Shown here piece by piece: positions 932 to 16,816 of a stretch of DNA of 64,000 bases. Source of the stretch: Escherichia coli (GTDB lineage: Bacteria; Pseudomonadota; Gammaproteobacteria; Enterobacterales; Enterobacteriaceae); the NCBI RefSeq assembly GCF_003018115.1, contig NZ_CP027457.1. One strand, given 5' to 3'. How positions within the stretch are numbered: position 1 is the stretch's first letter; every line of letters starts with the position of its first letter. A program made the position numbers and the translations under genes. Below the pieces are notes generated by a model, which did not search any database, was not told the DNA's origin, and worked only from the letters and a program-made list of their open reading frames with translations.

Positions 932-1726
932 ATGGATCTGTTGTACCGGGTAAAAACGCTTTGGGCCGCGCTGCGCGGTAATCATTACACCTGGCCTGCC
1001 ATCGATATCACCCTCCCCGGCAATCGCCATTTTCATCTGATTGGCAGTATTCATATGGGTAGCCACGATATGGCTCCCCTGCCCACCCGTTTGCTCAAAA
1101 AGCTCAAAAACGCCGATGCGCTGATCGTCGAGGCGGATGTTTCCACCAGCGATACGCCTTTTGCTAATTTGCCTACTTGCGAGGCGCTGGAAGAGCGCAT
1201 TAGCGAGGAGCAACTCCAAAATCTGCAGCACATTAGCCAGGAGATGGGCATTTCTCCGTCGCTCTTTTCTACTCAACCGCTGTGGCAAATCGCGATGGTT
1301 CTTCAGGCGACGCAGGCACAAAAACTGGGGCTGCGGGCAGAATACGGTATCGATTACCAGCTATTGCAGGCGGCGAAGCAACAACATAAACCCGTGATTG
1401 AACTGGAAGGGGCTGAAAACCAGATTGCCATGTTGCTCCAGCTCCCTGACAAAGGACTGGCGCTGCTGGACGATACGCTGACCCACTGGCATACCAACGC
1501 ACGGTTGCTGCAACAAATGATGAGCTGGTGGCTGAATGCGCCGCCGCAAAATAATGAAATAACGCTGCCCAATACGTTCAGTCAGTCGCTGTACGATGTG
1601 CTGATGCATCAGCGAAATCTCGCCTGGCGGGATAAATTACGCGCCATGCCGCCGGGGCGATATGTGGTCGCGGTCGGTGCACTACACCTGTATGGAGAAG
1701 GGAATTTACCGCAAATGTTGCGCTAA
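932..1726 (+). CDS. ybaP: TraB/GumN family protein YbaP (264 aa)
   Basis: ORF-track entry 932..1726, 264 aa; recognised N-terminus MDLLYRVKTLWAALRG; synteny. Confidence 0.93.
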   Translation: MDLLYRVKTLWAALRGNHYTWPAIDITLPGNRHFHLIGSIHMGSHDMAPLPTRLLKKLKNADALIVEADVSTSDTPFANLPTCEALEERISEEQLQNLQHISQEMGISPSLFSTQPLWQIAMVLQATQAQKLGLRAEYGIDYQLLQAAKQQHKPVIELEGAENQIAMLLQLPDKGLALLDDTLTHWHTNARLLQQMMSWWLNAPPQNNEITLPNTFSQSLYDVLMHQRNLAWRDKLRAMPPGRYVVAVGALHLYGEGNLPQMLR

Positions 1727-1808
1727 AAAAATGGCCAATATCGCTATTGGCCCGTCAAAGAGGAATTTCATTTTTTTATTATTATGCCGTCACTTTAAGC
1801 GACGGTGT
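1725..1808 (-). ncRNA. chiX: ChiX (MicM/SroB) small regulatory RNA
   Basis: Reverse complement of 1725-1808 reads acaccgtcgcttaaagtgacggcataataataaaaaaatgaaattcctctttgacgggccaatagcgatattggccattttttt, matching the recalled ChiX sequence including its terminator hairpin and U-tail; it lies in the ybaP-ybaK spacer as in K-12. Confidence 0.85.
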
Positions 1809-1914
1809 AACTCGATTGTCGCTCAATCTCACCATCCTGCCAATACTCTTAGGCAAGATGACTCTTTTTTTTGGACCGCCATCAGGCGTATGCTTGCTTC
1901 GTTTTTTTGTTTAA

Positions 1915-2409
<495 letters not shown>

Positions 2410-2413
2410 GCAT

Positions 2414-2438
2414 TGTGCCGGATGCAAACATCCGGCAC
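2414..2438. terminator. Hairpin between convergent ybaK and ushA (possible bidirectional terminator)
   Basis: Inverted repeat gtgccggatg-caaaca-tccggcac directly after the ybaK stop and before the ushA stop; the U-tract is weak. Confidence 0.45.
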
Positions 2439-2445
2439 TTTCGGA

Positions 2446-4098
2446 TTACTGCCAGCTCACCTCACCTTTCGGTTCATAAACACTCACATCCAGCGGCGAG
2501 CTTTTCTGGATATACGCTTTCAGCACTTCGGCATCAATAAAGCCGGTATTCACATAGCCCGGTTTGTTATCAAGGCGCGGATATCCATCACCGCCGGTGG
2601 CATTGAAGTTTAATGTCGCCATACGGTAAGTTTTCGCCGGATCGACCGGTTCGCCTTTGATTTTAAGGTCGTTCAGTTTGCCGTCTTTCGCCACAAAGCT
2701 AACGTTGGCAAATTGCGGGTAGGCACCTGAATCTGGCTTCATCTGCGCGACGGCGGTCAGGTAATCAATCACCTCTTTACCGGTCATGTCGGCATACACC
2801 ACCACATTGCCGAATGGCTGCACTTTCAGCACGTTTTTATAGCTGATATCGCCTGCTTCGATAGAATCACGAATTCCGCCTCCGCTCATCACCGCAAAGT
2901 CGGCACCAGTGCGATCCATTTGGGCTGCCAGAATCAACCGCCCCATATTGGTCTGTACAAAACGCACTTTGTCACGATCGCCTTCCAGACGACCATTGGT
3001 TTCGCCTATTTTCACTTCCAGCTGCGCTTTGCCTTTGTTCTGGAACGGTGATAACAGCGAGATCATTTGCTGGTTTTCAGCGATTTCAGGAGTGTAAAGC
3101 ACGCGCTCGCTTTTCCCGTCTTCCCAGGTCACTTTCTTCTTCAGGTTCACCGGAATCAGCTGGTAGTTAACCATTTTCATTTCGCCATTACGAAACTCAA
3201 AATCAGCCCGTCCCACGTATTTGCCCCACTCATGCGCCTGCACAATCCAGATGCCGTTTTGTTGATCTGGTTTGCATGGCGTACCCGGCACGTAATCGAC
3301 CTGTTTTTTGTTTTCTGCCGCCATGCAGACCGGATCTTGCGAGTGACCACCGACGATCATCGCCAGCGATCCGGCAGGCAGCGCGCGTGCCATCTCCACA
3401 TCGCCCGGTGCGTTAGAGCCGTGCTCACCATTATTGTAATGCCCCATATGGGTCGCCGCGATAATAATGTCTGGCTTTTCTGTCTGTTGCAGCTCCTGAA
3501 TCACCAGCTTCGCTTCATCGGCGGGCTTACGAAATTCGATATCAGTGAAGTATTCCGGGTTACCAATTTTTGCTGTGTCATCGGTTGTCAGCCCAATAAC
3601 GGCAATTTTCAGATCCTGACGCTTAAACAGCGCCCACGGTTTAAACAGGCGCTCGCCAGTACTTTTCTGGTAGATATTCGCGGAAAGCAACGGGAACTTG
3701 GCCCACTTTTCCTGCTGGCGTAATACGGTGAGCGGATTATCAAATTCATGATTACCGATCGCCATCGCGTCATAGCCCACCAGATTCATACCGCGAAAAT
3801 CAGGTTCGGCATCCTGTAAGTCAGACTCGGGCACGCCAGTGTTAATGTCGCCACCGGAAAGTAGCAGCACGCTACCGCCTTCAGCCGCAACCTCTTTGCG
3901 GATACCATCCACCAGCGTTTTTTGCGCCGCCAGACCATATTCGCCATATTCATTGCGCCAAAAATGCCCATGATGATCATTGGTATGCAGAACTGTAATT
4001 TTGTAGGTTTTATCCTGCTCATACGCCAGAGCAGTTTCACTCGCCAGTGTAAATGTGGTTAACAGCGCTAACGCCACGCCCCGCTGCAATAATTTCAT
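2446..4098 (-). CDS. ushA: Periplasmic UDP-sugar hydrolase / 5'-nucleotidase UshA (550 aa)
   Basis: ORF 2446..4098 (-), 550 aa; signal peptide and metallophosphatase motifs (HTNDHHGH, GNHEFD); recognised as UshA. Confidence 0.96.
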   Translation of the reverse strand: MKLLQRGVALALLTTFTLASETALAYEQDKTYKITVLHTNDHHGHFWRNEYGEYGLAAQKTLVDGIRKEVAAEGGSVLLLSGGDINTGVPESDLQDAEPDFRGMNLVGYDAMAIGNHEFDNPLTVLRQQEKWAKFPLLSANIYQKSTGERLFKPWALFKRQDLKIAVIGLTTDDTAKIGNPEYFTDIEFRKPADEAKLVIQELQQTEKPDIIIAATHMGHYNNGEHGSNAPGDVEMARALPAGSLAMIVGGHSQDPVCMAAENKKQVDYVPGTPCKPDQQNGIWIVQAHEWGKYVGRADFEFRNGEMKMVNYQLIPVNLKKKVTWEDGKSERVLYTPEIAENQQMISLLSPFQNKGKAQLEVKIGETNGRLEGDRDKVRFVQTNMGRLILAAQMDRTGADFAVMSGGGIRDSIEAGDISYKNVLKVQPFGNVVVYADMTGKEVIDYLTAVAQMKPDSGAYPQFANVSFVAKDGKLNDLKIKGEPVDPAKTYRMATLNFNATGGDGYPRLDNKPGYVNTGFIDAEVLKAYIQKSSPLDVSVYEPKGEVSWQ

Positions 4099-10957: not shown

Positions 10958-11088
10958 TACCGCCTCTTATCGATTCAACTTGTTGATAATTGTAGCGGAA
11001 AAGTGAGGAAGAAGAACTAATTGCTGTGAGAGGTATTGCCTGAGGTGGATGAGCAGACCTGCCCGAAAGCAGATCTGCTGCAGCTTGA

Positions 11089-14884: not shown

Positions 14885-16816
14885 TCAAATGGGGCGGATA
14901 CTTTCTTCATCCAGCTCCGCATCGAAAAACCGACGCAGGGTCTGAATATTATTATCCGCAATAATGGACTCGCGCGCCTGCGCAAGTTTTTCTTCGTATA
15001 TCGCCTGACGCCACTCCAGCGGCGTACGCACCGCGGGATTATCATCTTCAACGATAGTCAGTTCAACCGTTGAACCTTTTAACATGCTCAACGCTTCAGC
15101 CAGTTTTTGCTGTGCACCGCGGTTGTTCAAATGCCGCTGAGAGGAGCGCAAATGCAGACATACTGCGTTATCACTCTCCTCTTTCCAGGCATTTAAGGCC
15201 ACCTGTTCGACCAGTTTTGGTAGCGAAAGTTGACTCACCTGAGCCGCCCACGGGTCGCGCTCAATGGCTTCTGCCGCCAGCTTCGCCGCCAGTTCCGGCG
15301 TTTTTTCATGTTCCAGCGCTTTTTTCAGCGCCTTCGGTGTGGCGACCACTTCTTTTTGCTGCATCACTGGAGTGGTCGCCTTCCAGCGATACGCTTCTTT
15401 TTTAGCTGGCGCTTTTTCCAGCGCCGATGGCACCGGACGCGCCTGAACGCGATCCGTGACCGAAGCCAGTCTTTCCAGCGCAGCGTTATTCACCGGCCGC
15501 GCGCGGGTAGCGGCTGCCGGTTCACTCTTTTTTGCTTTGGTTGCTCCCTGCACGCGCTGCAACTGCTGGCGCGCCGCCAGCACCTGGCTGGTGGTTTCTG
15601 AGAGCGGTACAGTCGGTGCCTGCTGCGCCGCTGATTGCGGTTGCGGCGGCACCTGGGTTGGCGTCATTACTGCCGTTGGCGCGACGGGTGCAAAGGACTG
15701 GCGTGGCACTTCTGGCTCAGGCAGCGGCATACGCGGATGGAACGCCAGCGCGCGCAGCAGCGTCATCTCAACGCCCATGCGGCGGTCCGGCGCATACGGT
15801 AATTCTTTGCGACCAATCAACAGCGTCTGATAGTAAAGCTGAATATCCGTCGGCGGTATGGTGCGCGCCAGTTCACGCATCCGCAGCTCGATGGCGGCCA
15901 TGTCGTTGCCAAGTGCAGCAGGCGAAAGTTGTACCATCGCAATACGATGCAACAGGCCGAGCATTTCCACCAGCAACGCTTCCCACTCGATACCACGGGC
16001 AGCGGCTTCATTAATCAGCGCCATTACGCGCTCGCCGTTGGCCTCGACCATCGCTTCAACCAGCGACAGCGCCTGATCGTCGTCAAGCGTACCCAGCATC
16101 GCACTGACCGCCTGGGTTGAAACCTGGCCGTCACCGCTGGCAATCGCCTGGTCGGTCAGACTTAAGGCATCTCGCAGGCTGCCTTCAGCGGCGCGCGCCA
16201 GCAATTGCAGCGCCCGCGGCTCGTGAGCGATATGTTCTTCATTGAGGATGTGCTCAAGTTGATGACGAATTTGCTCGACATCCAGCGCCTTGAGATGAAA
16301 TTGCAAACAGCGCGACAAAATCGTCACCGGCAATTTCTGTGGATCGGTCGTCGCCAGCAGAAACTTAACGTGCTCCGGCGGCTCTTCAAGAGTTTTTAAC
16401 AGTGCGTTAAAGCTGTGACGCGACAGCATATGCACTTCGTCGATGAGATAAACTTTGAAACGACCACGCGCCGGAGCGTACTGGACGTTATCCAGCAGGT
16501 CGCGGGTATCTTCAACTTTGGTGCGCGAGGCGGCGTCGATTTCAATCAGATCGACAAAGCGCCCCTGCTCGATTTCACGACAATTATCGCACACGCCGCA
16601 CGGCGTCGCGGTAATGCCGGTTTCGCAGTTTAGCCCCTTCGCCAGCAGTCGGGCGATAGAGGTTTTTCCGACGCCACGGGTACCGGAAAAAAGATAAGCA
16701 TGATGAATACGCCCTAACGACAAGCCGTTCGCCAGTGCGGTCAGCACATGTTCCTGGCCGACGACGTCAGCAAAGGTTTGTGGGCGCCATTTTCGGGCTA
16801 AGACCTGATAACTCAT
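14885..16816 (-). CDS. dnaX: DNA polymerase III tau subunit (643 aa); the gamma subunit is made from the same start by a programmed -1 frameshift
   Basis: ORF 14885..16816 (-); AAA+ Walker A motif GTRGVGKTS; recognised as DnaX. Confidence 0.97.
   Translation of the reverse strand: MSYQVLARKWRPQTFADVVGQEHVLTALANGLSLGRIHHAYLFSGTRGVGKTSIARLLAKGLNCETGITATPCGVCDNCREIEQGRFVDLIEIDAASRTKVEDTRDLLDNVQYAPARGRFKVYLIDEVHMLSRHSFNALLKTLEEPPEHVKFLLATTDPQKLPVTILSRCLQFHLKALDVEQIRHQLEHILNEEHIAHEPRALQLLARAAEGSLRDALSLTDQAIASGDGQVSTQAVSAMLGTLDDDQALSLVEAMVEANGERVMALINEAAARGIEWEALLVEMLGLLHRIAMVQLSPAALGNDMAAIELRMRELARTIPPTDIQLYYQTLLIGRKELPYAPDRRMGVEMTLLRALAFHPRMPLPEPEVPRQSFAPVAPTAVMTPTQVPPQPQSAAQQAPTVPLSETTSQVLAARQQLQRVQGATKAKKSEPAAATRARPVNNAALERLASVTDRVQARPVPSALEKAPAKKEAYRWKATTPVMQQKEVVATPKALKKALEHEKTPELAAKLAAEAIERDPWAAQVSQLSLPKLVEQVALNAWKEESDNAVCLHLRSSQRHLNNRGAQQKLAEALSMLKGSTVELTIVEDDNPAVRTPLEWRQAIYEEKLAQARESIIADNNIQTLRRFFDAELDEESIRPI
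15491..15533 (-). other. dnaX programmed -1 ribosomal frameshift cassette: slippery heptamer A AAA AAG (15527-15533), -1 frame UGA stop (15522-15524) and downstream stimulatory stem-loop (about 15491-15520)
   Basis: The minus strand reads gcaaccaaagcAAAAAAGagtgaaCCGGCAGCCGCtacccGCGCGCGGCCGGtg; the heptamer sits in the zero frame at tau codons 429-430 (..ATKAKKSEP..); after the slip the reading is GAG then UGA. Confidence 0.85.

Follow-up and report, generated by a model that had tools for sequence, protein, structure and literature searches.

The window analysed here, a stretch of 64,000 nucleotides of Escherichia coli DNA, carries on its minus strand an open reading frame that, on sequence grounds, is dnaX, and within it a compact group of recoding signals. 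The features are listed below, with positions counted from the first letter of the window; a range in descending order follows the direction of reading.

14885 to 16816, minus strand: dnaX open reading frame, translated in the zero frame into tau (643 aa, 71.1 kDa); the stop codon lies within the coordinates.
15522 to 16816, minus strand: coding extent of gamma (codons 1 to 430 in frame 0, a -1 shift, Glu, stop).
15488 to 15552 (read 15552 to 15488), minus strand: DnaX ribosomal frameshifting element at its full extent (Rfam RF00382), from a cmscan match.
15544 to 15549 (read 15549 to 15544), minus strand: internal Shine-Dalgarno-like (SD-like) AGGGAG, 10 nt upstream of the heptamer.
15533 to 15527, minus strand: slippery heptamer A_AAA_AAG, nucleotides 1284 to 1290 of the open reading frame.
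15522 to 15527, minus strand: -1 frame codons GAG (Glu431 of gamma) and UGA (15524 to 15522); the G that begins GAG is the last base of the heptamer.
15493 to 15520, minus strand: predicted stimulatory stem-loop of 28 nt, CCGGCAGCCGCUACCCGCGCGCGGCCGG, GC-rich, with 11-12 bp and a 6-nt spacer from the heptamer.

The product of the open reading frame matches the NCBIfam equivalog NF005942 with 978 bits (cut-off 613) and TIGR02397 with 445 bits, and the Pfam families PF13177, PF22608, PF12169, PF12168 and PF12170 follow one another in the order of domains I-V. This layout places an AAA+ clamp-loader module, a lid and domain III (residues 232-358) ahead of the DnaB-binding domain IV (PF12168, residues 417-498) and the alpha-binding domain V (PF12170, residues 500-640). 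The DnaX family is marked by a full-length equivalog match, by tau domains IV and V and by an N-terminal AAA+ clamp-loader module, and we found all of these. Residues 1-643 of the window's tau match PDB tau chains (8gj0 and others) over their full length, and the exact protein is recorded in E. coli on 132 contigs. The surroundings are likewise those of E. coli, with apt upstream and ybaB, recR and htpG downstream of dnaX, and collinearity with K-12 extends over the whole window, yajQ through copA, with an identity of about 98.7%. Within dnaX, 28 of 1932 nucleotides differ from K-12 (98.55% nucleotide identity), 26 of them silently; the only amino acid changes, P397A and P406S, fall in the Pro-rich linker common to tau and gamma.

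The recoding element itself is free of these differences, and its 65 nt are identical base for base to those of K-12. The cmscan match to RF00382 covers model positions 1-65 of 65 and scores 96.8 bits against a gathering score of 35 (E = 5.8e-20). Among complete E. coli genomes, the cassette is matched in 5423 of 5426, at 99% identity or more in 5372 of the 5423 and at 95-99% identity in the other 51; one E. coli genome has dnaX without a 65-nt megablast match. All matching records listed carry, at the equivalent position, the RefSeq annotation "DnaX frameshifting element". Every sequence-level feature that defines an RF00382 cassette (score, heptamer phase, -1 stop, hairpin and SD-like element) was found here. 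We also considered a chance origin and rejected it. Taken alone, the heptamer is frequent enough to be unremarkable; chance does not, however, account for the composite signal and its phase, nor for the Rfam score. With two mismatches allowed, the composite AGGGAG-N10-AAAAAAGAGTGA occurs once in the window and in none of 100 shuffles.

To follow the signals across species, we scanned one genome per species and obtained dnaX from 80 species, all of them Enterobacteriaceae, with 80-99% protein identity; together with the window, this gives 81 sequences. Read on the minus strand, the site runs ...GUGCAGGGAGCAACCAAAGCAAAAAAGAGUGAACCGGCAGCCGCUACCCGCGCGCGGCCGGUGAAUAAC..., and the heptamer stands in the X_XXY_YYZ phase, its first A closing codon 428 as the third base and the rest forming AAA (Lys429) and AAG (Lys430). 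It is the only in-phase X_XXY_YYZ motif (Y = A/T) within dnaX, and in 81/81 sequences it is in phase and invariant. The bare motif AAAAAAG is present in 22 copies in the window versus 14.8 ± 3.6 expected, a count that 5 of 100 shuffles reach. Two further copies within dnaX (15403 to 15397 and 15325 to 15319) were set aside, since they start at codon position 1 and so lack the X_XXY_YYZ phase. A single tRNA-Lys, of anticodon UUU with a modified U34, reads both Lys codons in E. coli, and AAG is shift-prone as a result; the pairing of this tRNA is stronger on AAA than on AAG and would therefore favour re-pairing in the -1 frame (PMC5009743). A search of the 64-kb window for tRNA genes, tRNA-Lys included, found none.

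In the -1 frame, the heptamer leads through one Glu codon into UGA, and this one-residue tail followed by the stop is kept in 81/81 sequences. The predicted gamma consists of 430 residues common with tau plus Glu, 431 aa in all (47.5 kDa, C-terminus ...KAKKE). It aligns from residue 1 to 431 with PDB chain 8giy_B, itself 431 aa long and ending in KKE, and differs from it only at A397 and S406. A shift at residue 430 would therefore lose nearly all of domain IV and the whole of domain V. An earlier note on this DNA, made from the sequence alone, had read an A AAA AAG heptamer, a -1 frame UGA "immediately following" and a gamma of 430 residues plus Glu at this site. The heptamer stands as described, in phase on the minus strand; the UGA is where the note's own arithmetic puts it, after one Glu codon; and the length of gamma proves exact, as the alignment with 8giy_B illustrates.

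That note listed its elements correctly within 15491-15533; it left the strand unstated and missed AGGGAG, which lies outside that interval. The AGGGAG window forms a predicted duplex with the anti-SD sequence of -7.4 kcal/mol, rank 16 of 1920 windows in dnaX, and its stimulatory role is taken from the literature (PMC5389563, PMC5009743). AGGGAG is kept in 67 of the 81 Enterobacteriaceae sequences; the remainder carry CGGGAG, AGGAGG, CAGGAG, AGGGGG, AAGGAA or AGGGTG, most of them with a GGAG/GAGG core, at an unchanged spacing of 10 nt. In 81/81 sequences the predicted anti-SD pairing is at least as strong as -5.4 kcal/mol, with a mean of -7.5 against a gene background of -1.7 ± 2.3.

Downstream of the heptamer, the GC-rich stem-loop that the earlier note had read directly from the sequence is recovered on folding. 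From 15520 to 15493 it reads CCGGCAGCCGC-UACCC-GCGCGCGGCCGG, and its lower stem is CCGGC/GCCGG, above which come an A.G apposition and then an upper stem interrupted by a bulged C; the loop is UACCC, and a basal A-U pair at 15521/15492 is optional. The published dnaX hairpin likewise has 11 bp, a bulged C and an A:G apposition (PMC5009743). The minimum free energy is -19.7 kcal/mol, with a z-score of -2.63 against dinucleotide shuffles and of only -1.1 when the hairpin is folded in a 91-nt context; these scores are modest because the region is GC-rich. Folding energy by itself would not prove the structure, and we relied on conservation across species instead.

Under the Rfam structure, 88% of cells paired among the orthologs, and 28-51% did so once the partners had been slid. 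No change is seen in the five C-G/G-C pairs of the lower stem, and 6 of the 11 pairs in all never vary. Strict covariation is thin: RNAalifold recovered the lower stem and two pairs only, with a covariation term of -0.24, and the only clean compensatory change is that of the basal A-U pair to G-C in 7 sequences, probably a single event in the Cedecea/Buttiauxella lineage. Rfam upper-stem pairs appear broken in many orthologs because these use a different upper-stem register. The Enterobacter, Lelliottia, Cedecea and Buttiauxella types have an upper stem of 4 bp, GCGC/GCGC, closed by a loop of 8 nt. Folded singly, all 44 distinct ortholog variants form hairpins of -18.4 to -23.9 kcal/mol, with the main stem starting 5-6 nt past the heptamer in 44/44 and the A.G apposition almost always kept; in 16 variants the fold adds a short outer helix that begins nearer the heptamer. 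The geometry and stability of the hairpin are thus kept despite the change in upper-stem sequence. The position of the site ranges from codon 421 to codon 439 among orthologs as the linker varies in length, and the in-phase heptamer, the Glu codon and the UGA are still kept.

We considered whether the heptamer and hairpin could be by-products of encoding the Lys-Lys-Ser-Glu-Pro-Ala-Ala... linker, with the short product, if there is one, cut from tau by proteolysis, the route by which gamma arises in Caulobacter (PMC5009743). The commonness of bare AAAAAAG in the window would suit such a reading, as would the GC-richness of the region, whose shuffles fold well too. What speaks against it is the pattern of synonymous change. 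On a codon alignment, a fraction of 0.42 (sd 0.096) of synonymous codon pairs differ gene-wide, and this falls to 0.10-0.17 in the 11-codon windows centred on codons 424-437; the gene-wide minimum (0.10) lies at the cassette, whose flanking amino acids vary, and the 15 lowest windows all lie at these codons, one of them centred on an alignment column that is gapped in the window sequence. Several amino acid positions vary inside the same stretch, and low synonymous diversity despite variable amino acids marks the RNA, and not the protein, as the target of selection. Moreover, AAA and AAG are never exchanged at the two Lys codons of the heptamer and the -1 UGA is kept in all 81 species, the hairpin is preserved even where amino acids change, and mutagenesis of the heptamer abolishes the shift (PMC5389563). 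On these comparative data, the RNA signals are under strong purifying selection across the Enterobacteriaceae, and an origin as coding by-products is highly improbable.

Together, the anatomy of the site, its identity to K-12 and its conservation indicate that it is very probably (roughly 97%) the programmed -1 ribosomal frameshift cassette of E. coli dnaX, the frameshifting itself being taken from the literature. A ribosome arriving at A_AAA_AAG would hold tRNA-Lys on AAA in the P site and on AAG in the A site, while the 3' end of 16S rRNA would be paired to AGGGAG, 10 nt upstream. The GC-rich hairpin would lie 6 nt downstream, at the mRNA entry channel, and translocation would be hindered. 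In about half of the ribosomes, the tRNAs would re-pair one base back, on AAA AAA; these ribosomes would read GAG (Glu) and then UGA, releasing a gamma of 431 aa that keeps clamp-loader domains I-III but has neither domain IV, which binds DnaB, nor domain V, which binds alpha. Unshifted ribosomes would continue to the end of tau, 643 aa.

In published work on dnaX, this spacing brings the hairpin to the entry channel and the SD duplex close to the E site when the heptamer occupies the P and A sites (PMC5389563), and a hairpin 11-12 nt from the P-site codon hinders binding of the A-site tRNA (PMC7282821). Half of the ribosomes (50%) shift and terminate one codon later (PMC5009743). On a model mRNA in vitro, frameshifting reached about 84% when all three signals were present; mutating the SD left about 50%, removing the hairpin about 20%, and changing the heptamer to G_AAG_AAG about 2% (PMC5389563). 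The kinetic step at which the slip occurs is still debated in the literature.

Gamma could conceivably arise during transcription, by RNA polymerase slipping on the A run. Thermus thermophilus dnaX takes this transcriptional-slippage route (PMC5009743), and the site does contain a homopolymeric A run. That run is of 6 A only (GCAAAAAAGAG), against the roughly 9 A/T cited for bacterial transcriptional slippage (PMC5009743); an SD-like element selected at a precise spacing and an RNA hairpin suit the ribosome and not RNA polymerase; and purified translation of a synthetic dnaX mRNA reproduces the shift (PMC5389563). Transcriptional slippage therefore seems a very remote prospect for this gene.

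We give just as little credence to the view that the cassette works as described, yet sends a substantial share of ribosomes by -2/+1 or -4 into extra products. Past the site, the other frame runs for 11-12 codons before a stop, and there a product of 430 + 12 residues would carry the tail RVNRQPLPARGR, and -4 frameshifting has been reported with optical-tweezer constructs (PMC5009743); these constructs had stems of 25-55 bp, whereas the native stem has 11 bp, and the review that describes them urges caution in extrapolating (PMC5009743). Minor non-canonical products may in principle accompany gamma in the window.

The -1 ribosomal frameshift at dnaX is already known, annotated and experimentally characterised, and the window adds nothing new to it. 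The identical K-12 sequence has been characterised since 1990 and is a textbook example of recoding. The earlier note's description of a textbook dnaX recoding site is accordingly borne out by the RF00382 match, the identity to K-12 and the RefSeq annotation. The site determines how much gamma is made relative to tau for the replicative clamp loader of DNA polymerase III, and it is a main model system for -1 frameshifting. Here, its practical use is as a positive control for recognizing recoding sites from raw sequence.

Compared with the E. coli K-12 cassette, the window shares the same 65 nt, gene, phase, SD-like element at 10 nt, hairpin at 6 nt and gamma, and the 28 substitutions in dnaX, P397A and P406S among them, all fall outside it; the window cassette is the type sequence of the E. 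coli dnaX -1 programmed ribosomal frameshifting (PRF) family. The -1 PRF sites of IS3/IS911-family elements and of retroviruses and coronaviruses likewise combine X_XXY_YYZ slippage with a downstream structure, and IS elements often use A_AAA_AAG and an upstream SD as well (PMC5009743). In those systems, the shift extends translation into a fusion protein, with pseudoknots or three-way junctions often serving as stimulators, whereas the dnaX shift cuts the protein short after a single codon. Thermus thermophilus and Caulobacter dnaX reach the same outcome as the window, tau and a shorter gamma from one gene (PMC5009743), by different mechanisms: transcriptional slippage in Thermus and proteolysis in Caulobacter, as against a 6-A run with ribosomal stimulators here.

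Closer to E. coli, the Enterobacter/Cedecea/Buttiauxella-type cassettes (our ortholog loci L019, L070-L082 and others) have the window's heptamer, Glu-UGA tail, A.G apposition and CCGGC/GCCGG lower stem, and their SD-like element likewise lies at 10 nt. They differ in their upper stem, in which a GCGC/GCGC helix of 4 bp and a loop of 8 nt stand in place of the window's 5-bp bulged helix with a 5-nt loop. It is a speculative and rather unlikely possibility that the E. coli-type and Enterobacter/Cedecea-type hairpins set measurably different tau:gamma ratios between genera. Some of the Enterobacter/Cedecea/Buttiauxella-type cassettes combine a G-C basal pair with a canonical AGGAGG.

Searching 5426 complete E. 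coli genomes, we found dnaX, the gene encoding the tau and gamma subunits, in 5424 of them, and its 65-nt ribosomal frameshifting cassette was matched by megablast in 5423, compared to the 5424 with dnaX. Cassette identity was 95-99%, instead of at least 99%, in 51 genomes. For two matches, the record carries a plasmid label.

The tau/gamma protein encoded in the window differs at two codons from K-12 and from the closest complete genome, both of which carry proline at each position:

15628, minus strand: dnaX codon 397, Ala397
15599-15601, minus strand: dnaX codon 406, Ser406

Both residues belong to the Pro-rich linker and precede the shift site, and exact copies of the tau protein with Ala397 and Ser406 were found on 132 E. 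coli contigs.

Among the Enterobacteriaceae dnaX loci returned by a scan of one genome per species, a second hairpin architecture was observed in Enterobacter, Lelliottia, Leclercia, Cedecea, Buttiauxella, and related genera (loci L019, L022, L024-L026, L030, L034, L036, L041, L053, L059, L067, L070-L075, and L078-L082). Its upper stem is a 4-bp GCGC/GCGC helix with an 8-nt loop, while the other type combines a 5-bp stem containing a bulge with a loop of 5 nt. At the loci with this alternative hairpin, the cassette is positioned at approximately 2750-2840; the basal pair of the hairpin is G-C in the Cedecea/Buttiauxella group, and four Cedecea-type loci (L072-L075) possess a canonical AGGAGG. 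Another locus in the scan, L038 (CACSKA010000001.1, dnaX at 1501-3432), comes from a record titled 'Chryseobacterium sp. 18061'. Its DnaX shares 86% identity with that of E. coli, and the gene has a complete Enterobacteriaceae frameshift cassette. The same study also produced L029, which bears the title Citrobacter. The L038 assembly is probably mislabelled or contaminated.

Elsewhere in the window, four other RNA elements were matched by Rfam, all exceeding the gathering score:

1725-1808, minus strand: sroB sRNA, 82.1 bits
7488-7565, minus strand: additional naRNA4/REP element, 74.3 bits
32355-32451, minus strand: 4.5S/SRP RNA ffs, 68.1 bits
50103-50198, plus strand: sraA sRNA, 106.7 bits

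The ffs position matches the K-12 annotation, while those of sraA and sroB come from Rfam alone, since neither is annotated in the K-12 record used for comparison.

The window also differs from K-12 between adk and hemH, where 53 nt (11035-11087) stand in place of 157 nt. The K-12 segment that is replaced includes CCCCTCGCCCCCTCGGGGAGAGGGTTAGGGTGAGGGG, a G/C-rich repeat, as well as a hairpin resembling a terminator. The 53-nt segment has a small inverted repeat of its own, GCAGCAGATCTGC...GCAGGTCTGCTC. At the start of the window, positions 93-431 form a tandem array (unit 101 nt, 3.4 copies, 98% matching), and three naRNA4 (REP/BIME-type) Rfam matches at 148-427 coincide with it. Since the alignment from ybaQ to copA is offset by 101 nt, K-12 NEB5-alpha has one 101-nt unit fewer than the window's array.
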